DNA from: Mobula hypostoma
Lineage: Eukaryota
DNA: 64,000 nucleotides
NCBI RefSeq assembly: GCF_963921235.1
Contig: NC_086097.1
Location: forward strand, 159,900,001-159,964,000
Direction of reading: 5' to 3'
Position numbers and translations under genes: made by a program. Shown in pieces: positions 13,592-64,000 of the stretch. The notes below the pieces were generated by a model. It saw nothing but the letters and a program-made list of their open reading frames with translations. It was not told the DNA's origin and did no database searches. How positions within the stretch are numbered: position 1 is the stretch's first letter; each line of letters starts with the position of its first letter.

Positions 13592-13810
13592 TGTGCTGAC
13601 CCACTTTCTACACAAGCGAACCAGCTCACAAAATAGCCCGCACGCGGGGAGAGACTTTTGTAATGCACCTCTGACGTCATTTCCGCCTGGAGAGGGCTGG
13701 AAGGGAACTGCTTAAAAGCCAGTGCCGCGAAGTTTGAATAAATGAGTCTCGAGTGCGACTTACAGACTACGTGTCGTTATTTCTAGCTCTGTGTGTAGCA
13801 CATCGCTACA
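13592..13810 (+). repeat. 5' LTR of the CsRn1-like element
   Basis: Direct repeat of 17479-17697 with about 14 mismatches counted by eye; contains AATAAA and a TGACGTCA motif. Confidence 0.95.
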
Positions 13811-13811
13811 T

Positions 13812-13823
13812 TGGTGACCCTGG
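13812..13823 (+). promoter_or_regulatory. Primer-binding site, tRNA-Trp-like
   Basis: TGGTGACCC immediately after the 5' LTR is complementary to the tRNA-Trp 3' end (GGGUCACCA). Confidence 0.8.
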
Positions 13824-13849
13824 CGGTCCAAACAGGATTTGGACCAAAG

Positions 13850-14537
13850 ATGATCGACTCTTCATCTGTTCATGCAGTTTCGCTAAAACTGCCAACTTTC
13901 TGGATGCTGTGACCACGCATGTGGTTTGACCAAGCAGAAGCCCAGTTCCAGATTCGGCAGATATCTTCAGATTCCACACGTTACTATTACATGGTGAGCT
14001 CCCTTGACCAGGAGACAGCCGAACAGGTTGGGGATTTCATACAGTCACCCCCCCGAAGAAGGCAAATATGCAGCATTCAACCTTTGGCCTCTCACGGCAT
14101 GAGCGAGGTGCCCGTTGCTGCACCTGGACAATTTGGGAGACAGACCGCCGTCAGCATTAATGAATGAGATGCTGGCCCTGGCTGAAGGACACAAACCCTG
14201 CCCCATGTTTGAGCAGGCGTTCCTAGAACAACTGCTCGAGGACATACATCTGCTGCTGGCCGACGCAGATTTCACTGACCCCCAGAAGGTGGCGGCCCGG
14301 GCAGTCGTGCTGTGGAAAGCTAAGAGGGAGAGCGGGGTGTCCGTCGGACAGATTACCAAGCCATGCGCCCAACAGCAGGCCAGACCAGGCCCAGCAATGG
14401 AGCGCACACAACCCAGAGGCAGGAGTGAGAAGGCCAATGAACAGTGGTGTTTCTACCACCAGCAGTGGGGCACAGAAGCCCGCCGTTGTCGCCCGCCCTG
14501 CAAGTTCCCGGGAAACGCCAGGGCCAGCCGCCACTAA
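13850..14537 (+). pseudogene. gag: Gag of the CsRn1-like element (stop plus frameshift)
   Basis: AVSLKLPTFW...WFDQAEAQF, LGDRPPSALMNEM and the CHCC motif CFYHQQWGTEARRCRPPC; TGA at codon 21. Confidence 0.85.
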
Positions 14538-14555
14538 TGGCTACGGCCGCTGGCC
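14510..14555 (+). promoter_or_regulatory. -1 programmed ribosomal frameshift signal
   Basis: G GGA AAC in the gag frame (14510-14516), 5-nt spacer, stem GGCCAGC (14522-14528) / GCTGGCC (14549-14555); the protease ORF is in the -1 frame. Confidence 0.85.
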
Positions 14556-17400: not shown

Positions 17401-17465
17401 AGAGGCAGACCGCCCAAACAGAGGCCAATCCAGACTGTGGACATTGGGGGTGTATCGCTGGTTCT

Positions 17466-17475
17466 GGGGGTGGGG
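17466..17475 (+). promoter_or_regulatory. Polypurine tract
   Basis: gggggtgggg lying 3 nt before the 3' LTR. Confidence 0.7.
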
Positions 17476-17478
17476 TTA

Positions 17479-17697
17479 TGTGGCGACCCACTCTGTACAC
17501 AAGTGAACCAGCTCACCAAATAGCCCGCACACGGGGAGAGACTTTTGTAATGCACCTCTGACGTCATTTCCGCCCGGAGAGGGCTGGAAGGGAACTGCTT
17601 AAAAGTCAGTGCCATGAAGTTTGAATAAACGAGTCTCGAGTGCGACTTACAGACTGCGTGTCGTTATTTCTAGCTCTGTGTGTAGCACATCACTACA
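17479..17697 (+). repeat. 3' LTR of the CsRn1-like element
   Basis: Direct repeat of 13592-13810, followed by TSD ATGT. Confidence 0.95.
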
Positions 17698-20017
17698 ATG
17701 TACTATATTACTCCATGGTTCTACTGTATGACTCCATGTTCTAGTGAAATGGTCTCTTCAAGAAATGCTGGGTGCTTGGTGCTAGTTGATAGAATATGGC
17801 TAGGGTATCCTTAAGAGAAGCCGATGAAAAGGGAGGCCAAATTTTCCTCTTGTCTTTCCTCCAGTGGCAGAGATTTGTGTTATTTTTTAAATGTAAACCA
17901 CCCACATGCCAGCCCACTAGAGGTTTATTTACCCTGAATGAGAGCATAATTTCTTCCTAAAACTCCATGCTCTAAAATTTTAGTCAGATCATGAAGATAT
18001 GACAAGCAACTCTCCAAAATACAACTCAAATAATTAGTTGGCAGAGCAAGAGGAACGGGAGGCCGTTGACATTTCCCACTAGAGAGCCAACTGCAGTCAT
18101 TCTCACTCCCAAGCACAGCTACAAGCAGAAAGGTCGATTGTACAGTTATAACAGAAACTACAATATAGCATAAGACTGGCTAAAATAACGTAGCACCTCT
18201 AAATGAAACAGGCACTTTAGAACAATATTACCAATTGAAGTTTAAAACAAGCCTCAAAAAAATAATCCAGGAAACTTGGGGGTATGTTTCAAGGAGGGTT
18301 GCAATGGAGAGGTCTTGTGAGTGAATTCCAGATCTTACAGCCTGTGTAATTTGAGGTGGAGGTGTAGTGAGGGAGGTAGGGAGTGAACATGAGCCATTCC
18401 TATACAGAATCACATAGGCCTGTGACTTTACCATTAATGGCTTGTTGGTTTCACAGAGATATTACACAGCATAGCGACAGGCAATGAAATGTTGCAGAGC
18501 ATGTAAATAGACAATTTGTTTCTCAAACATAGTTTGTATGAAGATATTGCCCTTTAAGACCCTGTTTCTAAGTTTACAGCTAGCGTGTTGATGCTTTGTG
18601 ACTAATGGCTGTGACCTATTTGCTTGAGTGAAAGGTAGTAAATATAGTTCTGCATAATTTCTACTGAAATAGTTCCTACTGAACAGCGAGGAATCATTTT
18701 GGTGCTGGTAAGTGCATGCAAATAACAGCACCGATCTGTGTCATACATGGTGAAGTTAGCTGCTGCTCTTTACTCCAGCCACTGTCAACATCCATAAATG
18801 TCAGTGAAAGTGTCTCTAATTTGATTAAATTAGACAGCCTCAGATTCTCTAGACAAGATTAGCTGCAACAGTGTTAACAGCACCTACTTTAAGAGAAACG
18901 TGATGGAATTGGTGTTTGTACTTCGTACAACAAGGTAATGGGGCAGGTCTAAGAAACTAATCCCATTATGTGACTGTAAATCTGAAAAGGATGGAACACT
19001 GTATTGATTGCACTTGAGGGAACAAAACCCTCAACAAAATAAGGAAAAAATAGAGCAATCTTTTCAGCTTTACACCAGTTGCCTGCCTCTTACTTCTCTC
19101 TAAATCCTCTAGACTGACCACTCATACCCCACCAACTTAGACCACTGTTCCTCCTTCTTCACCACCCCAGACTTTTAAAAAAACATCTGCTCAGGTTGAA
19201 ATCAGCTTTGCCTGGAACCTGGCATACATTACTACCCTCCACTGGTCCCCCCTCAGCAATGAGCCTCCCCATCACTTTCTGTGGAAGGACTTCCTGTGAT
19301 GACTGAGGTTAACTGGAGCAAGCAATGCAGCGATTCAGAGCTGAGGTGAGGGCTGTTTCGATGAGTGTGGCCATTGCTGGGGTCTGGCAACAATTGCTCC
19401 ATTGTGCTGGCAGACCACTTGACCATATGTTCTCCCTCATCACCTTCTGTTAGATGTGATGGAAGCTGCCTTCTACCTGTCACTTTATTTGACTGCACAG
19501 CTCTCCACTGTCCAGGGATTTCTCAATAGTGACAAGCAAACAGACTCTTGGCATGGCAGAATATTGCGGTAAAGTGGGCAGGGATTTGAGCCAGATTCCT
19601 GGCATGGAGGTGATATCAGTATCTCCCTCTATATAATTCAGTAATCGTGCTTTTAGCACTGATCCATTAGCCATGCCAAGGCTCCAGTGCATTAAAAGAA
19701 CACCAAAGGCATTACCTTTGAGAAGTTACGCTTTTACTCACTTTGTCCGAAGCAAATCAGGGAGATGCATAGAATGATTGAGTTGAACTAAAAGATCAGC
19801 TATTACCCTACTGACGGGCAGATCACTGAAAAAGCCAAATGGCTTCTATTCCAGCCTTTATTTCTTACGTTGTTACATCTGTGAGGTTATCTAGAATATA
19901 TATTACTGCAGGATATGGAGCTGAGCATCTTCCAGTGCACTTGATACATTAGAACCTACTGCAAACTCAGAAATGTTGGAAATTGTGAGAATTGTGTGCT
20001 AATGTGTATGCACACAT

Positions 20018-24067: not shown

Positions 24068-26339
24068 TCTTCATTAATATGGAGAGTGACATAGTTAATT
24101 CAGAAACAAAGGTTCTGAACTTAAAGAGGGGTAACTTTGAAGGTATGTGAATTAGCTAAGATAGACTGGCAAATGACACTTAAAGGATTGACGGTGGATA
24201 TGCAATGGCAAGCATTTAAAGGTTTCATGGATGAACTACAACAATTGTTCATCCCAGTTTGGCAAAAGAATAAATCAAGGAAGGTAGTGCACCCATGGCT
24301 GACAAGAGAAATTAGGGATAGTATCAATTCCAAAGAAGTAGCATACAAATTAGCCAGAGAAAGTGGCTCACCTGAGGACTGGGAGAAATTCAGAGTTCAG
24401 CAGAGGAGGACAAAGGGCTTAATTAGGAAGGGGAAAAAAGATTATGAGAGAAAACTGGCGGGGAACATAAAAACGGACTGTAAAAGCTTTTATAGATATG
24501 TAAAAAGGACAAGACTGGTAAAGACAAATGTAGGTCCCCTGCAGACAGAAACAGGTGAATTGATTATGGGGAGCAAGGACATGGCAGACCAATTGAATAA
24601 TTACTTTGGTTCTGTCTTCACTAAGGAGGACATAAATAATCTTCCTGAAATAGTAAGGGACAGAGGGTCCAGTGAGATGGAGGAACTGAGTGAAATACAT
24701 GTTAGTAGGGAAGTGGTGTTAGGTAAATTGAAGGGATTGAAGGCAGATAAATCCCCAGGGCCAGATGGTCTGCATCCTAGAGTGCTTAAGGAAGTAGCCC
24801 AAGAAATAGTGGATGCATTAGTGATAATTTTTCAAAACTCGTTAGATTCTGGACTAGTTCCTGAGGATTGGAGGGTGGCTAATGTAACCCCACTTTTTAA
24901 AAAAGGAGGGAGAGAGAAACCGGGGAATTATAGACCGGTTAGCCTAACGTCGGTGGTGGGGAAACTGCTGGAGTCAGTTATCAAGGATGTGATAACAGCA
25001 CATTTGGAAAGCGGTGAAATGATCGGACAAAGTCAGCATGGATTTGTGAAAGGAAAATCATGTCTGACGAATCTCATAGAATTTTTTGAGGATGTAACTA
25101 GTAGAGTGGATAGGGGAGAACCAGTGGATGTGGTATATTTGGATTTTCAAAAGGCTTTTGACAAGGTCCCACACAGGAGATTAGTGTGCAAACTTAAAGC
25201 ACACGGTATTGGGGGTAAGGTATTGGTGTGGGTGGAGAATTGGTTAGCAGACAGGAAGCAAGGAGTGGGAATAAACGGGACCTTTTCAGAATGGCAGGCG
25301 GTGACTAGTGGGGTACTGCAAGGCTCAGTGCTGGGACCCCAGTTGTTTACAATATATATTAATGACTTGGATGAGGGAATTAAATGCAGCATCTCCAAGT
25401 TTGCGGATGACACGAAGCTGGGCGGCAGTGTTAGCAGTGAGGAGGATGCTAAGAGGATGCAGGGTGACTTGGATAGGTTGGGTGAGTGGGCAAACTCATG
25501 GCAGATGCAATTTAATGTGGATAAATGTGAAGTTATCCACTTTGGTGGCAAAAATAGGAAAACAGATTATTATCTGAATGGTGGCCGATTAGGAAAAGGG
25601 GAGGTGCAACGAGACCTGGGTGTCATTATACACCAGTCATTGAAAGTGGGCATGCAGGTACAGCAGGCGGTGAAAAAGGCGAATGGTATGCTGGCAGTTA
25701 TAGCGAGAGGATTCGAGTACAGGAGCAGGGAGGTACTACTGCAGTTGTACAAGGCCTTGGTGAGACCACACCTGGAGTATTGTGTGCAGTTTTGGTCCCC
25801 TAATCTGAGGAAAGACATCTTTGCCATAGAGGGAGTACAAAGAAGGTTCACCAGATTGATTCCTGGGATGGCAGGACTTTCATATGAAGAAAGACTGGAT
25901 GAACTGGGCTTGTACTCGTTGGAATTTAGAAGATTGAGGGGGGATCTGATTGAAACGTATAAGATCCTAAAGGGATTGGACAGGCTAGATGCAGGAAGAT
26001 TGTTCCCGATGTTGGGGAAGTCCAGAACGAGGGGTCACAGTTTGAGGATAGAGGGGAAGCCTTTTAGGACTGAGATTAGGAAAAACTTCTTCACACAGAG
26101 AGTGGTGAATCTGTGGAATTCTCTGCCACAGCAAACTGTTGAGGCCAGTTCATTGGCTATGTTTAAGAGGGAGTTAGATATGGCCCTTGTGGCTACAGGG
26201 GTCAGGGGGTATGGAGGGAAGGCTGGGGCGGGGTTCTGAGTTGGATGATCAGCCATGATCATAATAAATGGTGGTGCAGGCTCGAAGGGCCGAATGGCCT
26301 ACTCCTGCACCTATTTTCTATGTTTCTATGTTTCTATGT
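24068..26339 (+). mobile_element. Young 5'-truncated CR1 LINE
   Basis: Open 700-aa RT frame, 3' stem-loop ggtgcagg...cctgcacc (26273-26311) and (TTCTATGT)n tail. Confidence 0.97.
24137..26239 (+). CDS. CR1 ORF2 reverse transcriptase portion (endonuclease lost by 5' truncation)
   Basis: KSPGPDG, NYRPVSLTS, YLDFQKAFDKV, QGSVLGP, KFADDTKL, YKALVRPHLEY, FFTQRVVNLWN. Frame is open but the start is not the natural one. Confidence 0.9.
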   Translation: MKVCELAKIDWQMTLKGLTVDMQWQAFKGFMDELQQLFIPVWQKNKSRKVVHPWLTREIRDSINSKEVAYKLARESGSPEDWEKFRVQQRRTKGLIRKGKKDYERKLAGNIKTDCKSFYRYVKRTRLVKTNVGPLQTETGELIMGSKDMADQLNNYFGSVFTKEDINNLPEIVRDRGSSEMEELSEIHVSREVVLGKLKGLKADKSPGPDGLHPRVLKEVAQEIVDALVIIFQNSLDSGLVPEDWRVANVTPLFKKGGREKPGNYRPVSLTSVVGKLLESVIKDVITAHLESGEMIGQSQHGFVKGKSCLTNLIEFFEDVTSRVDRGEPVDVVYLDFQKAFDKVPHRRLVCKLKAHGIGGKVLVWVENWLADRKQGVGINGTFSEWQAVTSGVLQGSVLGPQLFTIYINDLDEGIKCSISKFADDTKLGGSVSSEEDAKRMQGDLDRLGEWANSWQMQFNVDKCEVIHFGGKNRKTDYYLNGGRLGKGEVQRDLGVIIHQSLKVGMQVQQAVKKANGMLAVIARGFEYRSREVLLQLYKALVRPHLEYCVQFWSPNLRKDIFAIEGVQRRFTRLIPGMAGLSYEERLDELGLYSLEFRRLRGDLIETYKILKGLDRLDAGRLFPMLGKSRTRGHSLRIEGKPFRTEIRKNFFTQRVVNLWNSLPQQTVEASSLAMFKRELDMALVATGVRGYGGKAGAGF

Positions 26340-30370: not shown

Positions 30371-31434
30371 TACATTTATTTATCAATCACATGGACATCA
30401 AATCATACAGTGCAATGTGTTGTATGTGTTATCAAACAATACAATCTGATGATGAACCGAGACGCAGATGTCACCACACATTCCAATGCCAACAAAAAAT
30501 GCTCACGATGTTCAGCAGCGCAACATGCAGTCAACATACAACAAGCAACAACATCAAAACTAATGATTTTCCCACCCACAGTCCCCCCTCTCAACCACTT
30601 ATAGAGATAAGCCTCCAAACTCGGAACAGGCCATGGACCCAGACTCGTAGAAATTGGGTCTCCAACCTCCAGACTCACCAACCTAGCGGTTTGATCTTTA
30701 GACTTCAACTTCTGGACTACTGACCATTGGAATTTGAACCTATGGTCTTCAACCTCAAACTATTGACCTCTGAACTTCAACCCTGAAGGTAATCTGACCT
30801 CATGGCCAGCTTTAGATATACATGAATTCAAGAGATATATGATTAGTGTTGAATATTAGCACTAATGTAAACAACCAGTCACTGTTTAATTGAATGGCAA
30901 TAGTCAATTATAGCTCCTTTTTTGTTAGTCCTTCTGCTTCTCTCTCTGCTGTTACATCCTAATGTTGATACTTGCATCAGTTTACTTGAGGTAAGGGGGT
31001 TTATCACTTTCTTGCACTATTATACTTTGCCTTAATTAGAAAAATATATCACCAGAAAGACATCTTAAATACAAATATTAAATTATACATAATTAGAATA
31101 TATATTCCAGTGAATTACAGCAACTGTTCTGCTACAAATGATCAACATTTCATCCTGAACAGACTTTTACCTCAAAGGTTATTATTTAACAGAAGAATCT
31201 TCCAGCCCAGCAAATTAATTTTCAAAAGGAACAGTCAGATTTATTACTAGAGCAGGAAGGTCTTTCTGAGGAATTGTGATGATGAGGTCTTCTTGCTAGA
31301 ACCTAGAGATTTTTTTGGGGGGAAATGATCATTGGAATTGAAGATCTGAGATTACAAGAACTGCACTTCATATTTGTTCCTGGTAGTTCTCCAACTTAAC
31401 AGCAAGAACATCTATTTTTCTATCCTTTAGTAAT

Positions 31435-34269
31435 CATAGAAACATAGAAACATAGAAAATAGGTGCAGGAGTAAGCCATTCGGCCCTTCGAGCCTGCACC
31501 GCCATTTATTATGATCATGGCTGATCATCCAACTCAGAACCCCGCCCCAGCCTTCCCTCCATACCCCCTGACCCCCGTAGCCACAAGGGCCATATCTAAC
31601 TCCCTCTTAAATATAGCCAATGAACTGGCCTCAACTGTTTCCTGTGGCAGAGAATTCCACAGATTCACCACTCTCTATGTGAAGAAGTTTTTCCTAATCT
31701 CGGTCCTAAAAGGCTTCCCCTCTATCCTCAAACTGTGACCCCTCGTTCTGGACTTCCCCAACATCGGGAACAATCTTCCTGCATCTAGCCTGTCCAATCC
31801 CTTTAGGATCTTATACGTTTCAATCAGATCCCCCCTTAATCTTCTAAATTCCAACGAGTACAAGCCCAGTTCATCCAGTCTTTCTTCATATGAAAGTCCT
31901 GCCATCCCAGGAATCAATCTAGTGAACCTTCTTTGTACTCCCTCTATGGCAAAGATGACTTTCCTCAGATTAGGGGACCAAAACTGCACACAATACTCCA
32001 GGTGTGGTCTCACCAAGGCCTTGTACAACTGCAGTAGTACCTCCCTGCTCCTGTACTCAAATCCTCTCGCTATGAATGCCAGCAAACCATTCGCCTTTTT
32101 CACCGCCTGCTGTACCTGCACGCCCACTTTCAATGACTGGTGTATAATGACACCCAGGTCTCGTTGCACCTCCCCTTTTCCTAATCGGCCACCATTCAGA
32201 TAATAATCTGTTTTCCTATTTTTGCCACCAAAGTGGATAACTTCACATTTATCCACATTAAATTGCATCTGCCATGAATTTGCCCACTCACCCAACCTAT
32301 CCAAGTCACCCTGCATCCTCTTAGCATCCTCCTCACTGCTAACACTGCCACCCAGCTTCGTGTCATCTGCAAACTTGGAGATGCTGCATTTAATTCCCTC
32401 ATCCAAGTCATTAATATATATTGTAAACAACTGGGGTCCCAGCACTGAGCCTTGCGGTACCCCACTAGTCACCGCCTGCCATTCTGAAAAGGTCCCGTTT
32501 ATTCCCACTCTTTGCTTCCTGTCTGCTAACCAATTCTCCACCCACACCAATACCTTACCCCCAATACCGTGTGCTTTAAGTTTGCACACTAATCTCCTGT
32601 GTGGGACCTTGTCAAAAGCCTTTTGAAAATCCAAATATACCACATCCACTGGTTCTCTCCTATCCACTCTACTAGTTACATCCTCAAAAAATTCTATGAG
32701 ATTCGTCAGACATGATTTTCCTTTCACAAATCCATGCTGACTTCGTCCGATCATTTCACCGCTTTCCAAATGTGCTGTTATCACATCCTTGATAACTGAC
32801 TCCAGCAGTTTCCCCACCACCGACGTTAGGCTAACCGGTCTATAATTCCCCGGTTTCTCTCTCCTTCCTTTTTTAAAAAGTGGGGTTACATTAGCCACCC
32901 TCCAATCCTCAGGAACTAGTCCAGAATCTAACGAGTTTTGAAAAATTATCACTAATGCATCCACTATTTCTTGGGCTACTTCCTTAAGCACTCTAGGATA
33001 CAGACCATCTGGCCCTGGCGATTTATCTGCCTTCAATCCCTTCAATTTACCTAACACCACTTCCCTACTAACATGTATTTCGCTCAGTTCCTCCATCTCA
33101 CTGGACCCTCTGTCCCTCACTATTTCTGGAAGATTACTTATGTCCTCCTTAGTGAAGACAGAACCAAAGTAATTATTCAATTGGTCTGCCATGTCCTTGC
33201 TCTCCGTAATCAATTCACCTGTTTCTGTCTGCAGGGGACCTAGATTTGTCTTCACCAGTCTTTTCCTTTTTACATATCTATAAAAGCTTTTACAGTCAGT
33301 TTTTATGTTCCCTGCCAGTTTTCTCTCATAATCTTTTTTCCCCTTCATAATTAAGCCCTTTGTCCTCCTCTGCTGAACTCTGAATTTCTCCCAGTCCTCA
33401 GGTGAGCCACTTTCTCTGGCTAATTTGTATGCTTCTTCTTTGGAATTGATACTATCCCTAATTTCTCTTGTCAGCCACGGGTGCACTACCTTCCTTGATT
33501 TATTCTTTTGCCAAACTGGGATGAACAATTGTTGTAGTTCATCCATGCAACCTTTAAATGCTTGCCATTGCATATCCACCGTCAATCCTTTAAGTGTCAT
33601 TTTCCAGTCTATCTTAGCTAATTCACGTCTCATACCTTCAAAGTTACCCCTCTTTAAGTTCAGAACCTTTGTTTCTGAATTAACTATCTCACTCTCCATC
33701 TTAATGAAGAATTCCACCATATTATGGTCACTCTTACCCAAGGGGCCTCTCACGACAAGATCGCTAATGAACCCTTCCTCATTGCTCAAAACCCAGTCCA
33801 GAATAGCCTGCTCTCTAGTTGGTTCCTCGACATGTTGGTTCAAAAAACCATCCCGCATACATTCCAAGAAATCCTCTTCCTCAGCACCTTTACCAATTTG
33901 GTTCACCCAATCTACATGTAGATTGAAGTCACCCATTATAACTGCTGTTCCTTTATTGCACACATTTCTAATTTCCTGTTTAATACCATCTCCGACCTCA
34001 CTACTACTGTTAGGTGGCCTGTACACAACTCCCACCAGCATCTTCTGCCCCTTAGTGTTACGCAGCTCTACCCATATCGATTCCACATCTTCCCGGCTTA
34101 TGTCCTTCCTTTCTATTGCGTTAATCTCTTCTTTAACCAGCAACGCCACCCCACCTCCCCTTCCTTCATGTCTATCACTCCTGAATATTGAATATCCCTG
34201 AACGTTGAGCTCCCATCCCTGGTCACCCTGGAGCCATGTCTCTGTGATCCCAACTATATCATAATCGTT
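31435..34269 (-). mobile_element. Young 5'-truncated CR1 LINE, same family as 24068-26339
   Basis: APE endonuclease (DIVGITETWL, VYRPPN, IMGDFN, SDHN) plus RT, and the same tail. Confidence 0.97.
31675..34269 (-). pseudogene. CR1 ORF2 (APE + RT), near-complete, with a premature C-terminal stop
   Basis: 888-aa ORF whose first ~25 aa come from flanking DNA; CAG-to-TAG at 31675-31677 relative to the sister copies removes the last ~45 residues. Confidence 0.9.
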
Positions 34270-34605
34270 CCCCTCTGTACCCTTTTTTTCCTTATCCCAC
34301 CAGCCCCATTTCCCATCTCCCATCACTAAATCTGCCATCACTCACTCATTCCTCCCTTTGGTTCCCATCAGTATCTCCTACCCTTCAGTCCATTGTCCAC
34401 CATCCTCCCCATCTTCTTCAGCTGTTAGTCACTTCCACCTATCACCTCCGAGCTTCTTGCATCATTCCTATCCTCCCCCCCTCCACGTGCCTATCATACT
34501 TCCTGCTCCTGATCCATCTTTCACTCGCCAACTCTTCTGCGCCCCTTCTTCACACCTTTTTCTCCTCTCTTTCTTTCCAGTCCTGATGAAGGGTCCAGCT
34601 CAGGA
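34270..34605 (+). mobile_element. Old Penelope 3' terminal fragment
   Basis: Pyrimidine-rich tract ending ttctttccagtcctgatgaagggtc (5' half of a hammerhead). Confidence 0.65.
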
Positions 34606-49435: not shown

Positions 49436-52400
49436 TCAGAATCAGAATCAGAATCAGAATCAGAATTAGGTTTAATATCACTGGCATATGTCATGAAATT
49501 TGCTGTTTTGCAGCAGCAGTATTTTGCAATATACAATGATAAAACCATACTTATTATTGTAAATTACAGTATGAAATATATATATGTATATATTATAAAT
49601 TTCAATTAAATAAGTATTACAAAAAGAGAAGAAAAGTTGTGTTCATGAGTTCAATGTCCATTCAGAAATCTTTTGGTAGAGGGGAAGAAGTTGTTCCTGA
49701 ATCACTGAGTGTGTGCATTCAGGCTCCTGTATCTCCTCCCTGATGGTAGCAATGGGAGGAAGACAAGTCCTGGGTGATGGGGGCCCTTAATGATGGATAC
49801 CGCTTTTTTAACGCAATGCTCCTTGAAGCTGTCTTGGAGGCGGGGAAGGCTGGTGTCCATGATGGAGCTGACTGAGATTATAACTTTCTGCAGCTTATTT
49901 CAATCCTGTGCAGTGTCCACCCCACCTCCTAGTTCCTGATGGTGAGGCAGCTAGTTAGAATGCTCTCCACAGTACACCTGCAGAAATTTGTGAGTGTCTT
50001 TGGTGACATACCAAATCTCCTCAAACTCCTGAAAGCTGCCCTGCCTTCTTTGTAACTTCATCAATACATTGGGCCCAGGATAGATCTTCAGAGATGTTGA
50101 CGCTGAGGAACTTGAAATTGCTCACCCTTTCCGCTTCTGACCCCTCAAAGAGGACTGATGTGTGTGCCCTTGTCTTTCCCTTTCTAAAGTCCATAATCAA
50201 ATCTTTGGTCTTACTGATGCTGAGTGCAAGGTTGTTGCTGCACACCACTCAAATAGCTGATCAGTCTTACTCCTGTACTCCTCCTTGTCACCATCTGAAA
50301 TTCTGCTGTTACGTACCCCGTAACTGGGTTGCCAAACCAGCAGAAATGGATCACTCAGTTGGAGTCTGGAGTACTAGAACTAAGAAAGTTTTATTAAAGA
50401 AACAAGCAACACAGTAATCGAAAGGATAATAAATGCAACAATTCAACAATGATAACCACACATGTGCACAGAATTAAGATAACAGCATCAATCAAGCTCT
50501 ATCGTTGTCTAGGGGTAAATGACCAATTTCAAAATGACTCAAAGTTCAGTCCAGTTTGTAGTTCAGTTCGCAGTAATCGTTGCCATGGCGATGGACAAGG
50601 TGGGGGAAGAGAGACAGAATAGGAACAACTGATCATTCAGAACACTGCTTCACTCACAGACCAGCGGGATGGCTCACAAACAGCTTTTGGGCAGGTCCTT
50701 GGTGATGTCACCTGAGGTCACCGACTGTGACCCCTCCTCCAGATGCGGTCGATCCTCTGCAGTGAACCCGGCACCCAGGCAAGGGCGGACACACACCGGG
50801 TTCCCGCTGATCGTACCTTTCCACCCTTGTCGTTGTCTGGGACTTCTCACCCACTCGTGAGAAGCGCACCGCTTCCAGGGTCTCGTTACCTCGGGTGGCG
50901 TGTGTGTCTGTCTTAGCGAACCTGTCCCTTTTTATCCCCCTGCTGGGGTATCGCCTGTCCATCACTTCAAACAGTTCAGGCTTCAAAGGGGGGAGCCGCT
51001 CCAGACAGCTCTTCCTCCCACATCCCTTCATTACACATCTCCAGACGCTGCTCCATTGTTCCTTATCTCTCCTTCCCCTGAGGGCAGGTGGCAGACCAAC
51101 TGCTGATGCCACTGATGCTAGCCCAGGCCAGCAAACATCTTAATTTTATGTGTATTCTCGTAACACTGCGAACAATAGTTATGTCATCAGTAAATTTATA
51201 GATGGTATTTGACTGTGCCTAGCCACACGGTCTTAGGTGTAGAGGGAGTAGAGCAGTGAGCTGAGCACTCATCCTTGACGTGCACCAGTGCTGAATCTCA
51301 GCGAGGTGGAGGTACTATTTCCTATCCACGTGGACTGTGGTCTTCTGATGAGAAAGTCCAGGACCTAGTTGCAGAGGGAGGTGCAGAGGCTCAGGTTTTG
51401 GAATTTTTTGATCAGAACTGTAGGAATGATTGTGTTAAACTCTGAGCTGTAGTCAATAAACAGCAGCCTGATGCATGTATTTGTATTGCCCAGGTGATCC
51501 AAGGCAGCATGAAGAGCTAATGAGATCACATCTGCTGGAGACCTAGTGTGGCAATAGGCAAATTGCAGGAAGGCTACATCCTTGCTTAGTCAGGAATTGA
51601 TCTAGCCATAATCAACCTCTCAAAGCACATTATCACCACAGATGTGGGTGCTACTGGATGTCAGTCATTAAGGCAACTCACTCTTCTCTTCTTGGGAACT
51701 GGAATAATTGTTGCCCTTTTGAAGCAGGTGGGAACTTCTGAGTATAGCAATGAGAGATTGAAAATGTTTTTGAACACATCGTCAGTTGGTTTGCGTAGGT
51801 TTTCAGAGCCCCACCAGGTACACTGTTGCCTTGTCAGGCTTCAACATTTTGAAGGAAGGTTTGATGTCAGCCTTAGAGATGGAGATCACAGGGTGACGGG
51901 ATGCTGCAGGCATCCTCATAGCTGTAGATCTATTCTCCCTTTCAAAGTGAGCATAAAAGGCATTGAGCTTATCTGGGAGTGAAACGCCACTGTCATTCAT
52001 GATGTTAGGTTTCACTTGCAGGAAGCAATGGCCTGCAAACCCTGCCAGAGTTGACATACATTCAATTCCTCCTCTAACCTCAATAGGAGTTGTTCTTTTG
52101 CTATTAAGTTAGTACCCTGTGAGTCATAACTGGCCTGCTTGTATAGTCCTGGATCACCAGCCTTGATCTAGCCCTCAGCAGACAACGAATCTCCTGGTTC
52201 ATCCATGGGCTTTTGATTCCGGTGTATACGGTATGTTCTCAGAGGCACACACTCATCCATACAGGTTATAATGAAATCGGTGACAACTGTGGCATACTCA
52301 TTCAGACTTGAAAATGAATACTGTCCAGCCCAGTGACTCAAAGCAGACCTGTAAGCACTCCTGTGTCTCCCTTGTCCATATTTCCTTCATCCTCACTACT

Positions 52401-53760: not shown

Positions 53761-54319
53761 AGGCTTTTTTATTCGGAATATTTTTTCTTCTATAATTGTA
53801 TTTTGCTCACATACTTGGCTGCAATTAGAAAGATTCCACAGACATCTGACGGACCTTGGAACTGTATAGGTACAATTCAACACTGGTGAACTGTTCTGTA
53901 AATCCTCTGCTTCTTGCACCCCTTCCTCTCACTGTTCAACAGTGAAACTGTTTAGTGGGTAGTGTAGTTGTAGAGTGACTATATTACTAGACAATAATCC
54001 AGAAAATGCTTCTAATAATCTTGTTTAAAAGTCACCATGGCAACAGAGATTTTAAGATGAATTAATTAAACAAATATGCAATTAAATTGTTCATCATTAA
54101 TTGTAACCCAGAAATCACAAGATTGTCATCATATTGCATTTGCTGCAACAGCATCCTTTGGGAAAGGAAATTTGACTCCTGATTTTTTGGGGTTATGATT
54201 CTAAAGCAGGTGATAGATTAAATTCCTTTTCATATTAACCCTAAGTGTCCAGCCTCTTATTTAGAAACCGTGACAACTGCTGTAAGACATCTCAAGAGAA
54301 ACATCAATCCTGCATCTTA

Positions 54320-55198
54320 TGTTACGTACCCCGTAACTGGGTTGCCAAACCAGCAGAAATGGATCACTCAGTTGGAGTCTGGAGTACTAGAACTAAGAAA
54401 GTTTTATTACAGAAACAAGCAACACAGTAATCGAAAGGATAATAAATGCAACAGTTCAGTGATGATAAACACACATGTGCACAGAATTAAGATAACAGCA
54501 TCAATCAAGCTCTATCGTTGTCTAGGGGTAAATGACCAATTTCAAAATGACTCAAAGTTCAGTCCAGTTTAGTAGTTCAGTTCGCAGTAATCGTTGCCAT
54601 GGCGGTGGACAACGTGGGGGAAGAGAGAGATAGAATAGGAACAACTCATCATTCAGAACGGCTTCACTCACAGACCAGCAAGATGGCTCACAGACCAGCG
54701 AGATGGTTCACAAACAGCTTTTGGGCGGGTCCTTGGTGATGTCACCTGAGGTCACCGACTGTGACCCCTCCTCCAGATGCGGTCGACCCTCTGCAGTGAA
54801 CCCGGCACCCAGGCAAGGGCGGACACACACCGGGTTCCCGCTGATCGTACCTTTCCACCCTGTGCGTTGTCCGGTACTTCTCACCACTCGTGAGAGGCGC
54901 ACCGCTTCCAGGGTCTCGTTACCTCGGGTGGCGTGTGTGTCTGTCTTAGCGAACCTGTCCCTTTTTATCCCCCTGCTGGGGTATCGCCTGTCCATCACTT
55001 CAAACAGTTCAGGGTTCAAAGGGGGGAGCCGCTCCAGACAGCTCTCCCTCCCACATCCCTTCATTACACATCTCCAGACGCTGCTCCATTGTTCCTTATC
55101 TCTCCTTCCCCTGAGGGCAGGTGGCAGACCAACTGCTGATGCCACTGATGCTAGCCCAGGCCAGCAAACATCTAAATTTTATGTGTATTCTCGTAACA
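54320..55198 (-). repeat. 3' LTR of the Gmr1-like element
   Basis: Direct repeat of 58398-59276; about 4 differences seen by eye. Confidence 0.96.
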
Positions 55199-55210
55199 CT
55201 TCCCCCCTTT
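55199..55210 (-). promoter_or_regulatory. Polypurine tract
   Basis: Minus strand aaaggggggaag abuts the 3' LTR. Confidence 0.85.
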
Positions 55211-55370
55211 AAGGATTTTTACCGGGAGGTAAAAATTACAAACATGACTACATTATCTGATACATACACAATATACATCTTTAACAGTTATTTAGCTAAT
55301 ACAGAGAATTTGAAGCTGTCAACACCTTGACAGACAGTCATCACATTTTCTGTTCCTTTTACACGTGTTA

Positions 55371-58298
55371 TTAATAATCCCTTAGACCAGGCTCCAACTC
55401 AGCAAACTTCATAGTGGCCAAAAACACTGATGAATTGCGACCAATGTAACCTCTCATTTGGTTTTGTCCCGGACCACAACAACAAGGGTCGTCCCATTCC
55501 GACTCAATTTTCTCTCGCAAGGGCTTAGTAGGAGGGGGACGGGTATTGACCGCAGAGTTATTGCAAAACTTCCTGCAGTACCCCACCATCTCCAAAAGCC
55601 TTCTGAGGGCCCTCTTGTCTGTCGGGGTTGGGAGGTCAGCGATAGCCTGCACTGTCGCTTGCATCGCTGCCAGCTGCCCCTGTGCCACCACAATTCCCAG
55701 GTAAGTGTCCTTCGTGTGGCCGAATTCATTTTTTTCAAGGTTCACTATCAAGCTGGCTTCAGACAGCCGTATGAAATTGCCAATACACACCTCTGTGTTC
55801 ATCAGCCCTTTAGTCACTGAATTACTCAAAAAATATGGGTGTTGTTTACTTGGCTGCCCTATTGTAACAGACATAACCCAACGTCCCAGTTCTTTGCATT
55901 TCCTCGGGACAATCAAACACATGGGTGCGAGTCGTTTAATTACTCCTTCGGGGATTAAGGGAGAGACCGTATCAGTAGACCTGGCCAAAACAATAGCCTT
56001 CTCCCATCTGACCGATCCCATCCTAATCTTTTCAAAATGGTTTTTTCCTCTTATCAAGGGGCCCCTAGCATCATTGATTTCCACGCTAACACCGACTAGG
56101 TTTGTTAGCATATCAAAAGCCGGTGACCGTCTCAGTTCGCGTCGGTCATGATCAATAACATTCTTCCGCCTGGGCAGCCGGTAAATCTCTTTCATGATTC
56201 CACCAACTGTTTCCTCCAGCACCGCAAAATGTCCACCGGGGGGTACCTCGTGGGCCATGTTAAAAACCTCATCCCCATAACTCTTTTGCACCACCCCCCA
56301 CTCCTCATCTGCGGATGCTGTACTTGATTTCCCTTTCTTCCTTAGCACTTCCTCATCCGCACAATAGCTTGTCAAGGCTGTGTCAGAGAGAGCGGTCTCG
56401 GCAAAAACCATCAGCCCCTCGTCTCGCTCCTGCGTCTGCACAAATTCTTTCCTGGCTACTGCTACGTCCGTCCCAGCTCCCTCACTACCTCTTATCTCAC
56501 TACACCCTGTCTCATACAAGGTTGGCAGAAATGTTTCAGCCAAATTCACCATCGCGGGCGGGGCCTCCATGCTGGCAGGCTGACCCGTCAATCTCACGAC
56601 TGGGAACACGATTCCTCCGGCGATGTCATTACCGAGCAAGACTTCCACGTCTTTCATCGGTAATTCGGACCTCACCCCGATCGTGACTAGTCCAGAGACC
56701 AGGTTGCTCTGTAAATGTATCTGGTGCAAAGGGACTGACTCTGTCCCTTCCCCAACACCTTTGACCTCTACCTCCCCAGTCTGGGTCTCTGAGCTAAACT
56801 CTAATACACTCTTCAGTATTAGTGACTGACACGCTCCCGTGTCTCTCCAGATCCGCACTGGAACTGGTTTTAACCTCTCCTTCACTGACACCAGTCCGGC
56901 CGAGATAAACCTCTCGCGCCCTTCCTGGACTTTTTCAGACCTGTCCTTCCCTAGCGGTTCGCTTAACAGCTCAATACAGCCATTCAAAATTTCCGCTTTT
57001 CCTTTCCCCGTCTCCTTCCTTGGGGCAAAGCACCTGGACGCAAAGTGTCCGACTTTCCCACAATTATAACTGACGACTCCAGGAGACTTCCTACCAGACT
57101 GCTCCCGGTCTACCTTATCCTTTTCACTAGTCCCCGGCTTACTTTCTGACTTTTCCGGTGGACTCCCCCCGCCGTCCTGACTACCCTTCTGGTAGCCTTT
57201 ACTCGGGGCAACCTTCATTTTATGCGTCAACGCATACTCATCCGCTAACTTAGCAGTTGCGGCTAACGTGGCTGCCTCTTTCTCATCGAGGTAGGGTCTC
57301 ATACCCTCAGGGACACAACCTTTAAACTGCTCAATCAGAATCAGCTGCAGCAGTCTGTCATAATCCCCCTCTACCCCTTTCGAGGCGCACCAACGCTCAC
57401 AATATGTTTGCATCTCGCGAGCAAACTCCAAATACGTGCGGTCCCACCGCTTCCTCGCATTCCGGAACCTCTGCCGGTATGCCTCCGGGACCAACTCATA
57501 AATCCTGAGGATGGCCTCCTTCACCACCTCATACTTCTGGGCATCTTCCGCGGATAAAGCGGAGTAAGCTTGTTGGGCCTTCCCTTTCAGTACACTCTGA
57601 AGTAAAACAACCCACTTATCCCTCGGCCAGTCCTGACTTATAGCTACTTTTTCGAAGTGGAGAAAGTACCGATCCACATCGGTATCGTCAAATGGGGGAA
57701 CCAGCCTAACCTCCTGGGTCGCCCGGAACCCTCCACCTTGGTTCGGCACGAGCCCCTGCTCGGCCCTTATCTTTAACTTCTCCAGCTCAAATTCCCTTTC
57801 CCTCTGTTTCTCCTCTCTCTCCAACTGCCTGTCCCTCTCTCTCTCTTCTCTCTCCAACTGTCTTTCTCTCTCTTGCCTTTCTACCTCTTTCTCTCTCTCC
57901 CGCCTTTCTAACTCTTTCTCTCTCTCCTGCCTTTCTAACTCTCTCTCTTTCTCCTGCCTTTCTAACTCTCTCTCTTTCTCCTGCCTTTCTAACTCTCTCT
58001 CTTTCTCCTGCCTTTCTAACTGCCGTACCCGGAACTCGTGCTCGAGTCTCAGTTTTTCAAGCTGTACCTGTACCGCGTCTCCAGCAGGTTTTTCAATAGA
58101 CACCTCCCCCAGCTCACCTTGGGGAAACACACCTTTAGATACATAGTGCTCTACAATAGCTCTGTGTATCTCCTCTCTCCTCATTGTCGACTTCACCTTA
58201 GCAAGATTCACCCGTTTTGCCACAGCTATCAATTCCGATTTCCTGGCATCCTCTAATGCCTCCAAGGTCGGCGCCTTTATAAATTCCTCAACCTCCAT
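55371..58298 (-). CDS. 975-aa Gag (coiled coil, capsid/SCAN-like, zinc knuckle)-aspartic protease polyprotein with degenerate IN and RT remnants
   Basis: VPPFDDTDVDRYFLHFEK..WPRDKW; PEAYRQRFR...LILIEQF...LADEY (SCAN-like); SYNCGKVGHFASRC; RDTGACQSLI...LLGNDI; AHEVPPGGH; LIVNLEK...YLGIVV...PTPTDKRALRRLLEMVGYCRKF. Confidence 0.9.
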   Translation of the reverse strand: MEVEEFIKAPTLEALEDARKSELIAVAKRVNLAKVKSTMRREEIHRAIVEHYVSKGVFPQGELGEVSIEKPAGDAVQVQLEKLRLEHEFRVRQLERQEKERELERQEKERELERQEKERELERQEREKELERREREKEVERQERERQLEREERERDRQLEREEKQREREFELEKLKIRAEQGLVPNQGGGFRATQEVRLVPPFDDTDVDRYFLHFEKVAISQDWPRDKWVVLLQSVLKGKAQQAYSALSAEDAQKYEVVKEAILRIYELVPEAYRQRFRNARKRWDRTYLEFAREMQTYCERWCASKGVEGDYDRLLQLILIEQFKGCVPEGMRPYLDEKEAATLAATAKLADEYALTHKMKVAPSKGYQKGSQDGGGSPPEKSESKPGTSEKDKVDREQSGRKSPGVVSYNCGKVGHFASRCFAPRKETGKGKAEILNGCIELLSEPLGKDRSEKVQEGRERFISAGLVSVKERLKPVPVRIWRDTGACQSLILKSVLEFSSETQTGEVEVKGVGEGTESVPLHQIHLQSNLVSGLVTIGVRSELPMKDVEVLLGNDIAGGIVFPVVRLTGQPASMEAPPAMVNLAETFLPTLYETGCSEIRGSEGAGTDVAVARKEFVQTQERDEGLMVFAETALSDTALTSYCADEEVLRKKGKSSTASADEEWGVVQKSYGDEVFNMAHEVPPGGHFAVLEETVGGIMKEIYRLPRRKNVIDHDRRELRRSPAFDMLTNLVGVSVEINDARGPLIRGKNHFEKIRMGSVRWEKAIVLARSTDTVSPLIPEGVIKRLAPMCLIVPRKCKELGRWVMSVTIGQPSKQHPYFLSNSVTKGLMNTEVCIGNFIRLSEASLIVNLEKNEFGHTKDTYLGIVVAQGQLAAMQATVQAIADLPTPTDKRALRRLLEMVGYCRKFCNNSAVNTRPPPTKPLREKIESEWDDPCCCGPGQNQMRGYIGRNSSVFLATMKFAELEPGLRDY
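57800..58021 (-). repeat. 27-bp coding tandem repeat (LERQEKERE)n in gag
   Basis: Repeated ctttctaactctctctctttctcctgc units that decay in one direction. Confidence 0.9.
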
Positions 58299-58372
58299 TT
58301 CTGCTGTTTGTCTTTTCTTTCTTTCGGGAATTTTAACCCAATCAATTTACTCCGTCCCAAATTTAGCGTTCA

Positions 58373-58393
58373 AAATCGCGGACGAGAACCCCA
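58373..58393 (-). promoter_or_regulatory. Primer-binding site, tRNA-Pro-like
   Basis: TGGGGTTCTCGTCCGCGATTT versus the tRNA-Pro complement TGGGGGCTCGTCCGGGATTT, 4 nt inside the 5' LTR. Confidence 0.75.
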
Positions 58394-58397
58394 CTTA

Positions 58398-59276
58398 TGT
58401 TACGTACCCCGTAACTGGGTTGCCAAACCAGCAGAAATGGATCACTCAGTTGGAGTCTGGAGTACTAGAACTAAGAAAGTTTTATTACAGAAACAAGCAA
58501 CACAGTAATCGAAAGGATAATAAATGCAACAGTTCAGTGATGATAAACACACATGTGCACAGAATTAAGATAACAGCATCAATCAAGCTCTATCGTTGTC
58601 TAGGGGTAAGTGACCAATTTCAAAATGACTCAAAGTTCAGTCCAGTTTAGTAGTTCAGTTCGCAGTAATCGTTGCCATGGCGGTGGACAACGTGGGGGAA
58701 GAGAGAGATAGAATAGGAACAACTCATCATTCAGAACGGCTTCACTCACAGACCAGCAAGATGGCTCACAGACCAGCGAGATGGTTCACAAACAGCTTTT
58801 GGGCGGGTCCTTGGTGATGTCACCTGAGGTCACCGACTGTGACCCCTCCTCCAGATGCGGTCGATCCTCTGCAGTGAACCCGGCACCCAGGCAAGGGCGG
58901 ACACACACCGGGTTCCCGCTGATCGTACCTTTCCACCCTGTGCGTTGTCCGGTACTTCTCACCACTCGTGAGAGGCGCACCGCTTCCAGGGTCTCGTTAC
59001 CTCGGGTGGCGTGTGTGTCTGTCTTAGCGAACCTGTCCCTTTTTAACGCCCTGCTGGGGTATCGCCTGTCCATCACTTCAAACAGTTCAGGGTTCAAAGG
59101 GGGGAGCCGCTCCAGACAGCTCTCCCTCCCACATCCCTTCATTACACATCTCCAGACGCTGCTCCATTGTTCCTTATCTCTCCTTCCCCTGAGGGCAGGT
59201 GGCAGACCAACTGCTGATGCCACTGATGCTAGCCCAGGCCAGCAAACATCTAAATTTTATGTGTATTCTCGTAACA
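58398..59276 (-). repeat. 5' LTR of the Gmr1-like element
   Basis: Direct repeat of 54320-55198. Confidence 0.96.
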
Positions 59277-61998: not shown

Positions 61999-62781
61999 CA
62001 TAGAAACATAGAAACATAGAAACATAGAAAATAGGTGCAGGAGTAGGCCATTCGGCCCTTCGAGCCTGCACCGCCATTTATTATGATCATGGCTGATCAT
62101 CCAACTCAGAACCCAGCCTTCCCTCCATACCCCGTGACCCCTGTAGCCACAAGGGCCATATCTAACTTCCTTTTAAACATAGCTAATGAACTGGCCTCAA
62201 CAGTTTGCTGTGGCAGAGAATTCCACAGATTCACCACTCTCTGTGTGAAGAAGTTTTTCCTAACCTCGGTCCTAAAAGGCTTCCCCTCTATCCTCAAACT
62301 GTGACCCCTCGTTCTAGACCTCCCCAACATCGGGAACAATCTTCCCGCATCTAGCCTGTCCAATCCCTTTAGGATCTTATACGTTTCAATCAGATCCCCC
62401 CTCAATCTTCTAAATTCCAACGAGTACAAGCCCAGTTCATCCAGTCTTTCTTCATATGAAAGACCTGCCATCCCAGGAATCAATCTGGTGAACCTTCTTT
62501 GTACTCCCTCTATGGCAAGGATGTCTTTCCTCAGATTAGGGGACCAAAACTGCACACAATACTCCAGGTGTGGTCTCACCAAGGCCTTGTACAACTGCAG
62601 TAGTACCTCCCTGCTCCTGTACTCGAATCCTCTCGCTATAAATGCCAGCATACCGTTCGCCTTTTTCACCGCCTGCTGTACCTGCATGCCCACTTTCAAT
62701 GACTGGTGTATAATGACACCCAGGTCTCGTTGCACCTCCCCTTTTCCTAATCGGCCACCATTCAGATAATAATCTGTTTCC
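61999..62781 (-). mobile_element. Young short CR1 3' fragment, same family as 24068 and 31435
   Basis: (CATAGAAA)4 tail and an open C-terminal ORF2 frame TDYYLNGG...GYGGKAGF. Confidence 0.95.
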
Positions 62782-64000
62782 CAGGAGGTCCGGGAAGAAA
62801 GACAAGGGGGGGGTGACCCAGAGGACGGGCAAGAGGTATATTCAGAGGGACAGAGGGAGAAAAAGGAGAGTGAGAGAAAGAATGTGTGCATTTTTTGAAG
62901 CTCGCACCACATCTGCACACTACCTCTGATGCCTTCCTGTAGTAGTGGGCAACACGGTAGGGAACAAGTCCAGCTCTACCACAATCGAGATCTGTAGTAC
63001 TTAATATCCAGCACTGTCTTGGGATTGTAAAAAAAATGATGTAAAGGATGGGCAATTACTCCTTAGTTTGGACCCAGGGAGTGATTGAACATATCTCCTT
63101 CTTAACAGACCATTGGAAAAAGCAGTGCTGATAAGTATGTTAAAACAATGCTTTATCTGTACCTGCTCCTGTAGCTGTTATAAAATAACACAGTTTTTTT
63201 TGTGCATTGACAAAGCAGATTAGTTATTCAGTCATTTCATTGTTTATTGATAGGATTTTCCAGATGAAAAAAACAGCTACCTCAATAGCCATTGTATAAG
63301 GTATTAGTAAATTGTGTGTGAAGTGCTTGGGGAGTTTCTGAGAGGTGTGATAATGCACTGCAGAAACACAAGTCTTTCAGTGTTGCTTCCTGACATGGTT
63401 CCAGTTTGATGCTTACTGCCTACTCATAATGCAAAAGCTGCCTGTTCCCTGTAAGTACATTGCATGCTACATTCTAGAGCAAATCCATCCATTAGGGCCT
63501 GCTGATCCCCAGATCCCTATGTTCAAATTCATTTATTAAAAGTTGCATATTAAGCAATTAAATAATCTTCAATAGAAAGTTGTTCCATTTCCCTAAGAAC
63601 AATGTGTTCAGTCAACCCACCTCACCCCCAGCACCCCCAGTGCATCATTGTTTAATGTTGTGTTGTTCCTCCCCCCCACACCCTCTTTTTTTCTGATCTT
63701 TTCACTCAATCATCAGGAAACCGGAAAACTGAATTGCTTCTTCAGCACTTGACCGTTCATCAAAGCATTTAATTAGAGCTGAAGAAAGACGGTCTGGAAC
63801 CATGGATTAAACCATATGTAGTAATTACTTCTTTTTTGTTTAATAAGCTAAAAAGTAAATTTGTCTTTTATTTTGCAGTTTATTTGGAGAGATTACAGTT
63901 TAGATATACAGTCAAAGCCTGTACATATCAGAAAGCAATAGCTTGACTGAATAGTTGTGAAAACAGAATTGTGTGTTTAGCTCTGATAACAGTACGTTTT

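Follow-up and report, generated by a model that had tools for sequence, protein, structure and literature searches.

The minus strand of the stretch of Mobula hypostoma DNA analysed here (64,000 nt, hereafter the window) carries an LTR retroelement whose two terminal repeats, both with TG...CA ends, enclose an interior of 3,199 bp (Table 1). A preliminary description of this DNA had counted about 4 differences over 879 positions between the repeats and had recognised a primer-binding site (PBS), a polypurine tract (PPT) and an interior of about 3.2 kb with one stop-free open reading frame (ORF); comparison of the LTRs bore this out, and the ORF encodes 975 amino acids. The studied copy is without a target-site duplication (TSD), its flanks reading ATAG and TAAG, and the right flank opens with the same four bases that form the spacer between the 5' LTR and the PBS. 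TAAG follows the 3' LTR in three copies that have no matching TSD (window positions 54316 to 54319, and loci L019 and L097), possibly as a result of unprocessed DNA ends that were joined aberrantly. The neighbouring solo LTR of the same family is a separate insertion lying 3.2 kb from the element in the same orientation. Elsewhere in the window are a decayed Gypsy-type LTR element with the order RT-RNase H-integrase and repeats 93% identical (13592 to 17700) and young LINE copies that are 97-98% identical (24125 to 26339, 31432 to 34341 and 62004 to 62975), two of them inverted and 5 kb apart. No tRNA genes were found in the 64,000 nt.

Table 1. Positions in the window of the parts of the element and of the nearby solo LTR.
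Feature	Position	Strand	Remark
Solo LTR, same family, separate insertion	50307..51165	-	4-bp TSD CTGC
3' LTR, 879 bp	54320..55198	-	AATAAA at LTR position 791
Polypurine tract	55199..55210	-	
Single 975-aa ORF, Gag-protease with in-frame Pol-derived tail	55371..58298	-	stop-free from Met
RNase H remnant, end of ORF	55371..55481	-	
Tail part 3: RT palm end and thumb	55482..55826	-	stops at 86-aa connection/RNase H deletion
YxDD position	55776..55787	-	reads CIGN
Tail part 2: IN-RT linker and RT start	55827..56111	-	stops at 128-aa RT deletion
Integrase-core deletion junction	56112..56117	-	end of tail part 1
Tail part 1: PR-IN linker and His half of integrase zinc finger	56112..56555	-	CxxC deleted
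Aspartic protease	56556..56888	-	alignment to full-length relatives
DTGA of protease	56832..56843	-	
Zinc knuckle	57027..57077	-	first Cys is Ser
Capsid, N-terminal part and SCAN domain	57219..57716	-	N-terminal part by homology to Gmr1-like Gag
SCAN domain	57219..57488	-	Pfam SCAN E 1.3e-12 and alignments
Coiled coil from variable 27-nt tandem repeat	57759..58079	-	
Gag N-terminal helix-extended-helix domain, Rho-N/SAP/LEM-like, predicted	58119..58298	-	structure model
Primer-binding site, 19-nt variant of PBS-Pro	58375..58393	-	after 4-nt spacer
TAAG spacer, 4 nt, between 5' LTR and PBS	58394..58397	-	
5' LTR, 879 bp	58398..59276	-	4 differences from 3' LTR

Pfam recognises SCAN and zf-CCHC in the ORF and nothing else; the protease region and the Gag N-terminus have no match. 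The protease motif DTGA is kept in 93 of the 98 copies of the motif tallied, and the replacement of the first cysteine of the zinc knuckle by serine is private to the studied copy, being absent from the rest of the 108 loci scanned. A single-sequence structure model of the whole ORF reaches a pLDDT of only 39.5; the model of the N-terminal domain of Gag reaches 84, and its best fold match is the N-terminus of the Rho RNA-binding domain (Z 6.6, rmsd 1.7, 48 residues aligned), with SAP and LEM structures following at Z 4-5. Gag of the Gmr1 type is thus predicted to begin with a Rho-N/SAP/LEM-like domain, the middling Z scores speaking to the fold only.

Downstream of the protease the frame continues through a tail of 394 Pol-derived codons. 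Here the preliminary description, which held that the catalytic cores of integrase, RT and RNase H were all missing, stood in large part: there is no DDE core, and rve, RVT_1, RNase H and H2C2 find no Pfam match in the 975-aa ORF. The YxDD position is substituted rather than deleted, and about 23 residues from the end of RNase H survive, as does a piece of the linker between integrase and RT. Alignments agree with that description in placing a relic of the integrase zinc-binding domain, with the His half kept and the CxxC partner gone, ahead of a relic of the RT palm end and thumb; the thumb stretch (aa 844-920) is also the sole match in a PDB sequence search of the ORF. The segment that follows the His half was considered a candidate for the beginning of the integrase core, including the first Asp, and this was rejected, as it aligns to the integrase-RT linker of the closest full-length copy, which means that the whole integrase core has been lost. 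An element that has lost the integrase core, the RT catalytic motif and most of RNase H cannot be autonomous.

Gmr1-like Ty3/Gypsy elements have the order SCAN-PR-IN-RT-RH (bioRxiv 10.1101/2025.03.03.638093). The studied element shares with them the SCAN capsid, the protease, the single ORF and integrase remnants upstream of RT remnants, colinear with full-length relatives; it differs in being without the integrase core, the RT fingers, the RT catalytic motif and most of RNase H, although the whole domain order is present in the full-length partners in the same genome. Judged by its SCAN domain and domain order, the element is a Gmr1-like derivative.

The deleted form is abundant. An exact 28-nt motif across the integrase-deletion junction has at least 1,294 matches in the genome, so the junction is common to many loci as the preliminary description had anticipated, and a motif in the thumb relic has 1,868; reversed-pattern controls for both gave 0. 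In a search with the interior, 40 of 40 scored matches were full length at 98-100% identity. The 30 closest copies keep the full ORF in 23 cases and a 4-bp TSD in 26. Among copies sampled by position on one contig (C1), the full ORF is kept in 14 of 40, and LTR pairs, available for 39 of the 40, diverge by a median of 0.34% and a maximum of 2.9%; older subfamily classes reach about 6%. TSDs of 4 bp are present in 39 of 42 scorable position-sampled copies. The nearest named proteins (98-99%) are NCBI models of M. hypostoma, further related proteins coming from Hypanus, Hemitrygon and Pristis. Contigs of sequencing runs from organism codes B and D span the RNase H deletion junction, and hence the deleted form is not limited to one organism code. 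Contigs of four runs (RNA guessed or type unrecorded) cover 30 of 30 bins of the element, repeats of a control stretch being covered too, and list no joints suggestive of splicing at the big deletions. The family does not have the features of a domesticated single-copy Gag gene (one orthologous locus, no young LTRs). One near-identical ORF (P0002) bears the NCBI name 'metastasis-associated in colon cancer protein 1 isoform X1', apparently a misannotation through insertion in that gene model. Two aberrant copies may be mentioned: L079 is a mosaic with most of Gag-protease deleted, a partner-type integrase and a deleted-type 3' half, and L107 is without any Gag.

With more than 1,000 copies sharing the junction, and with Gag and protease under purifying selection (below), the suggestion that the deleted form amplifies as a lineage of its own holds. 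None of the observations that the preliminary description named as incompatible with it was made, be it deletions unique to this locus, stops accumulating at a neutral rate, or intact rve and RVT cores. That description also called for an autonomous partner with the same LTR family and PBS, and such full-length copies exist in the genome. They were sought with a stingray integrase core as the query (the best 150 of 15,321 candidates scored, 20 fetched), and 3 of the 20 fetched loci, one of them a tandem pair, carry an uninterrupted Gag-Pol frame of 1,551-1,580 aa with the same N-terminus. Young full-length copies have LTRs 91-96% identical to those of the element and carry the same PBS variant, and several have LTR pairs within 1%; the partner thus shares LTR, PBS and PPT with the deleted form and has been active at the same time. 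The integrase-core motif of this helper family has at least 155 matches in the genome, so that deleted copies outnumber integrase-bearing ones by about 8:1, both counts being exact-match lower bounds. L065 and L066 (G000:C80:24.467-24.483 Mb) are full-length elements in a tandem array with a shared LTR and nearly identical units.

Reverse transcription should restore the tRNA sequence at the PBS. Among loci L001-L170 the mismatched 19-nt variant nevertheless outnumbers canonical PBS-Pro, by 55 to 18 in deleted copies and by 8 to 2 in full-length ones. The canonical 18-mer of the 18 sister copies is the PBS-Pro described for MLV (PMC4587795), which in mice is bound by ZFP809 (PMC4587795). The variant might be explained by priming from a different tRNA, or else by evasion of tRNA fragments or of a repressor that binds the PBS.

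The relationship between the two forms differs along their length. Gag of the element is 97-99% identical to that of full-length single-ORF relatives, and in a DNA comparison with one full-length copy identity falls from 97-99% over Gag to 86-88% over the protease region and 63-85% over the tail; the third-position distance between the studied copy and young full-length copies rises in parallel from 0-5% in Gag to 17-18% in the protease and 27-40% in the tail. In a tree of the tail (L071 and L076, which are incomplete, were excluded from both trees) the deleted copies form one clade with a 0.21 stem and ladder-like subfamilies, whereas in the Gag tree deleted and full-length copies are interleaved at every age level. 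With rows for 20 deleted and 13 full-length copies, monophyly of the deleted ones has a support of 100 in the tail and is rejected in Gag (p-AU 2.9e-6), which argues that Gag has been exchanged repeatedly. The notion that the deleted element supplies its own capsid and protease therefore needs amending: both are under purifying selection, but Gag is held in common with the partner. Transfer from the deleted pool to the partner would fit two observations, namely that divergence among six young full-length copies is 2.0% for Gag and 0.7% for protease and Pol pieces, and that the nearest Gag neighbour of 8 of 11 full-length copies is a deleted copy, a count biased by the greater number of deleted rows. 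The reverse direction is represented by L118, L145 and L147, in which a deleted body carries the linker of the partner. These exchanges are probably due to template switching in co-packaged RNA.

Two full-length outside proteins served as outgroups for polarising the deletions of the tail. Losses on the deleted lineage comprise 5 aa upstream of the integrase zinc finger, 17 aa with the CxxC among them, about 280 aa spanning the integrase core and C-terminus, 128 aa within RT, 18 aa beyond the YxDD position and 86 aa from the connection and RNase H; three single residues were gained. At least nine indels of between 1 and about 280 aa are thus assigned to this lineage, and the frame is intact after each, although some junctions may be compensated pairs of small frameshifts. 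Shrinkage has continued, as in-frame deletions of 27, 21, 18 and 12 nt segregate among subfamilies in many combinations and have swept through the youngest ones. Just one frameshift has been fixed, through the loss of 14 nt at a point 13 codons short of the stop. From there on the ORF has left the parental frame, and it terminates 52 nt upstream of the parental stop.

Selection on the tail was assessed from parsimony counts, uncorrected for multiple hits and with a fixed transition/transversion weight of 3, taking changes on the path to the studied copy at codons where a young and an older full-length copy agree. In 260 such codons there were 127 nonsynonymous and 54 synonymous changes, a dN/dS of 0.91 that does not differ from neutrality (p 0.56); in full-length relatives the same codons give 0.29 (Fisher p 1e-5 against the deleted lineage). 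The regional comparison of dN/dS that the preliminary description had proposed thus sets the tail apart from Gag, with 0.19 between old and young deleted subfamilies, and from the protease, with 0.27-0.36 (p 0.007 for 0.27). The ratio computed from shared variants of the 30 youngest copies is 0.17 for Gag and protease, compared with 0.75 for the tail (p 0.0007). The lowest segments within the tail are the thumb (0.63) and the integrase His half (0.62), and in young copies the last segment has a pN/pS of 1.0-1.9.

The reading frame itself behaves otherwise. No nonsense change has been fixed in the 260 tail codons, where about 6.5 are expected (P ~0.0015). In a survey of indels and stops in 108 copies, in which the poorly aligned L107, L149 and L151 were left out of the clustering test, in-frame indels cluster by nearest neighbour within age classes (P 0.002-0.05), as heritable variants would, and recurrent stops and frameshifts do not (P 0.47-1.0); the recurrent stops are mostly at CGA, CAG or TGG codons, and what look like clustered frameshifts at codons 590-600 add up to multiples of three. 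Of the 66 singleton indels in the tail, 16 are in-frame and 50 frameshifting; beyond the stop, those that are common and heritable measure +4, -1, +/-1, -2 and, in one case, +3, so that most are out of frame. A neutral tail without fixed stops, in which the heritable indels are in-frame, leads to the conclusion that selection acts on the frame and not on the amino acids of the tail. Of the two targets offered by the preliminary description, the frame or the C-terminal tail, the first was thus upheld and the second was not. A -2 frameshift at codon 872, about 100 codons before the end, is found in 18 copies, against 1,868 matches to the thumb motif. As it is common to P0004 and P0006, a truncated subfamily was considered and rejected: the copies belong to several haplotypes, are scattered in the tail tree and do not cluster (P 0.49). 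The change looks recurrent, though it could be a brief lineage. The literature searched (subscription papers, supplements and Repbase/Dfam being outside its scope) held no report of frame-only selection on a Pol relic, nor of any non-autonomous family in the Gmr1 group; repeat databases may already list the present one.

The reading favoured here, to which we would assign a probability of roughly 0.55, is that of a long-lived enzyme-less Gmr1-like lineage which keeps its frame to escape nonsense-mediated decay (NMD) and draws its enzymes from a rarer full-length partner. The open frame would take ribosomes almost to the 3' LTR, and the RNA would thereby escape NMD; the partner's reverse transcriptase and integrase would be supplied in trans; deleted and full-length RNAs would be co-packaged and recombine by template switching; and surplus Gag from the deleted element might help a partner whose single ORF yields Gag and Pol 1:1. 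The recombination seen in the trees speaks indirectly for co-packaging. As the reason for the frame, NMD escape is the likeliest, being favoured by the tolerance of disruption only at the very end, by shrinkage through deletions rather than stops, and by the precedent of Rous sarcoma virus, which requires a dedicated element for NMD escape after its first ORF (PMC5031192). Judging by where the AATAAA lies, the 3' UTR would measure about 1 kb in spite of the open frame, and one has to assume that NMD is sensitive to an additional 0.3-1.2 kb. Non-autonomous wheat Angela elements are reported to spread despite many stops (PMC9744471), which counts against NMD escape since an open frame is then not generally needed. 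The 18-copy frameshift, if it is a short-lived lineage, counts against it too, as does a frameshift about 136 codons before the end that is shared by three copies of a second family described below.

The main rival is co-translational packaging, in which the 400 or so extra codons would tether nascent Gag, with its Rho-N-like head, coiled coil and zinc knuckle, to its own RNA and so permit capture in cis. It predicts the same signature of a frame kept without its sequence, with tolerance solely near the end of the ORF, and could draw on the nucleic-acid-binding type of fold predicted at the Gag N-terminus and on the IAP 1-delta-1 fusion, which is reported to facilitate 'retrotransposition in cis' (PMC7411935). 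However, that fold match is middling, the tail is still shrinking through the deletions that swept the youngest subfamilies, and a minimum tether length would permit stops deep in the tail, of which none has been fixed; we therefore regard a tether as unlikely, if the strongest competitor of NMD escape. It is less probable again that the tail polypeptide has a sequence-tolerant role, as a spacer or cleavable handle for Gag-Pol co-assembly, or that a short piece such as the RT thumb is used. The thumb and the His half do have the lowest dN/dS of the tail, thumb DNA is 85% identical to the partner, and the second ray family has a conserved RT/RNase H end; yet neither segment can be distinguished from neutrality (p 0.16 each), the last segment evolves freely among young copies, and the catalytic and metal-binding residues are lost. 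That the open frame is a product of chance or an artefact, with dead copies that stem from a single deleted master or from segmental duplication and are under no selection, is very improbable in spite of the modest share of intact ORFs among position-sampled copies and the missing TSD and knuckle substitution of the studied copy, as each locus has a distinct TSD, the subfamilies form a ladder on a 0.21 stem, purifying selection acts on Gag and protease, and the statistics of stops and indels contradict it.

Non-autonomous LTR elements that retain Gag have several precedents. The MaLR elements of mammals are Gag-like single-ORF non-autonomous LTR elements dependent on ERV-L; they belong to a different clade from the Gmr1-like elements and are not known to contain a Pol relic. 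The closest parallels are in wheat, where RLG_Sabrina_SA is described as a semi-autonomous GAG-Pro element (PMC9744471), and where RLG_Quinta has been proposed to provide extra Gag for the autonomous RLG_Cereba (PMC11302176). As in these systems, an abundant Gag or Gag-protease partner without RT and integrase has its LTR ends, PBS and PPT in common with an autonomous family, and Gag recombines; the ray family likewise combines an intact Gag-protease ORF with a multi-copy population bearing LTR pairs and TSDs. It differs in its vertebrate host and Gmr1 clade, in that Gag is exchanged with the autonomous partner itself, and in its traceable neutral Pol relic in frame, the available text on the wheat pair reporting no such test and giving the origin of Quinta DUF1 as unknown (PMC11302176). 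Mouse IAP 1-delta-1 is comparable as a deleted and highly active vertebrate LTR element that requires a full-length helper and in which an in-frame Gag-Pol fusion matters in cis; it is described as having one deletion and a defective Gag (PMC7411935), compared with an intact Gag-protease and more than 15 in-frame indels here. Plant TR-GAG elements resemble the ray element in an interior of less than 4 kb, a single ORF and, probably, mobilisation in trans, but they are defined by the lack of protease similarity, and for TR-GAG1 the source reports no full-length partner (PMC4350172); the protease and Pol relics place the present element outside that class (Gag only, without protease, IN, RT or RH similarity). 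A lifestyle based on Gag or Gag-protease alone is therefore already known, and what sets the ray family apart is the measured selection on the frame alone and the exchange of Gag with the partner.

A second, older LTR family (L197 and 19 relatives; loci L197-L200, L204-L206 and L207-L226) encodes up to 1,090 aa in an ORF whose Gag, protease and integrase regions have degenerated. This degenerate part has shared-variant dN/dS values of 1.21 and 0.94 and no shared stop, and the ORF holds eight shared in-frame indels and one compensated pair; outside the ORF, 9 of 9 indels are of frameshift size. The RT/RNase H end of this family is conserved (dN/dS 0.25-0.29), and together with the late frameshift shared by three copies this means that it is not a clean replicate. 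L205 combines a degenerate Gag with the start of an integrase that looks intact, and may represent a Pol-only stage, and L201 is a short derivative of the second family, old and sparse. Eight stingray-type proteins (P0009, P0012, P0013, P0014, P0015, P0017, P0019 and P0020, from two stingrays and one further source) have an intact Gag-protease followed in frame, in place of Pol, by a degenerate second copy of SCAN-NC-protease, which is the degenerate body of the second family. In an unrelated Gypsy element (L252:3170-4399, minus strand) the protease is fused in frame to an acidic, host-like coiled-coil segment.

Tentatively, and at somewhat longer odds than the reading of the studied family itself, one may propose that enzyme-less LTR elements of rays are under a general selection for translation to the 3' LTR, and that the deleted majority serves as a reservoir of Gag and LTRs. 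If the first part of this proposal is true, the Pol slot would be filled with in-frame junk, which is collapsed Pol here and a degenerate Gag-protease body in the stingray proteins, and in-frame captures of host cDNA are possibly the same phenomenon; such captures may be explained by selection on the frame. If the second part is true, rare full-length elements would be re-headed from the reservoir, and the two forms would be better seen as a two-part element than as host and parasite. Selection for translation is here separable from selection on the protein, in more than 1,000 dated natural copies, so that RNA data would suffice to test whether LTR-element genomes are shaped by mRNA surveillance or by co-translational packaging. 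A long open frame in a repeat, of the kind annotated in this genome as a host protein, need not encode a function, and the repeated exchange of Gag between an enzyme-less element and its partner is documented in a vertebrate.
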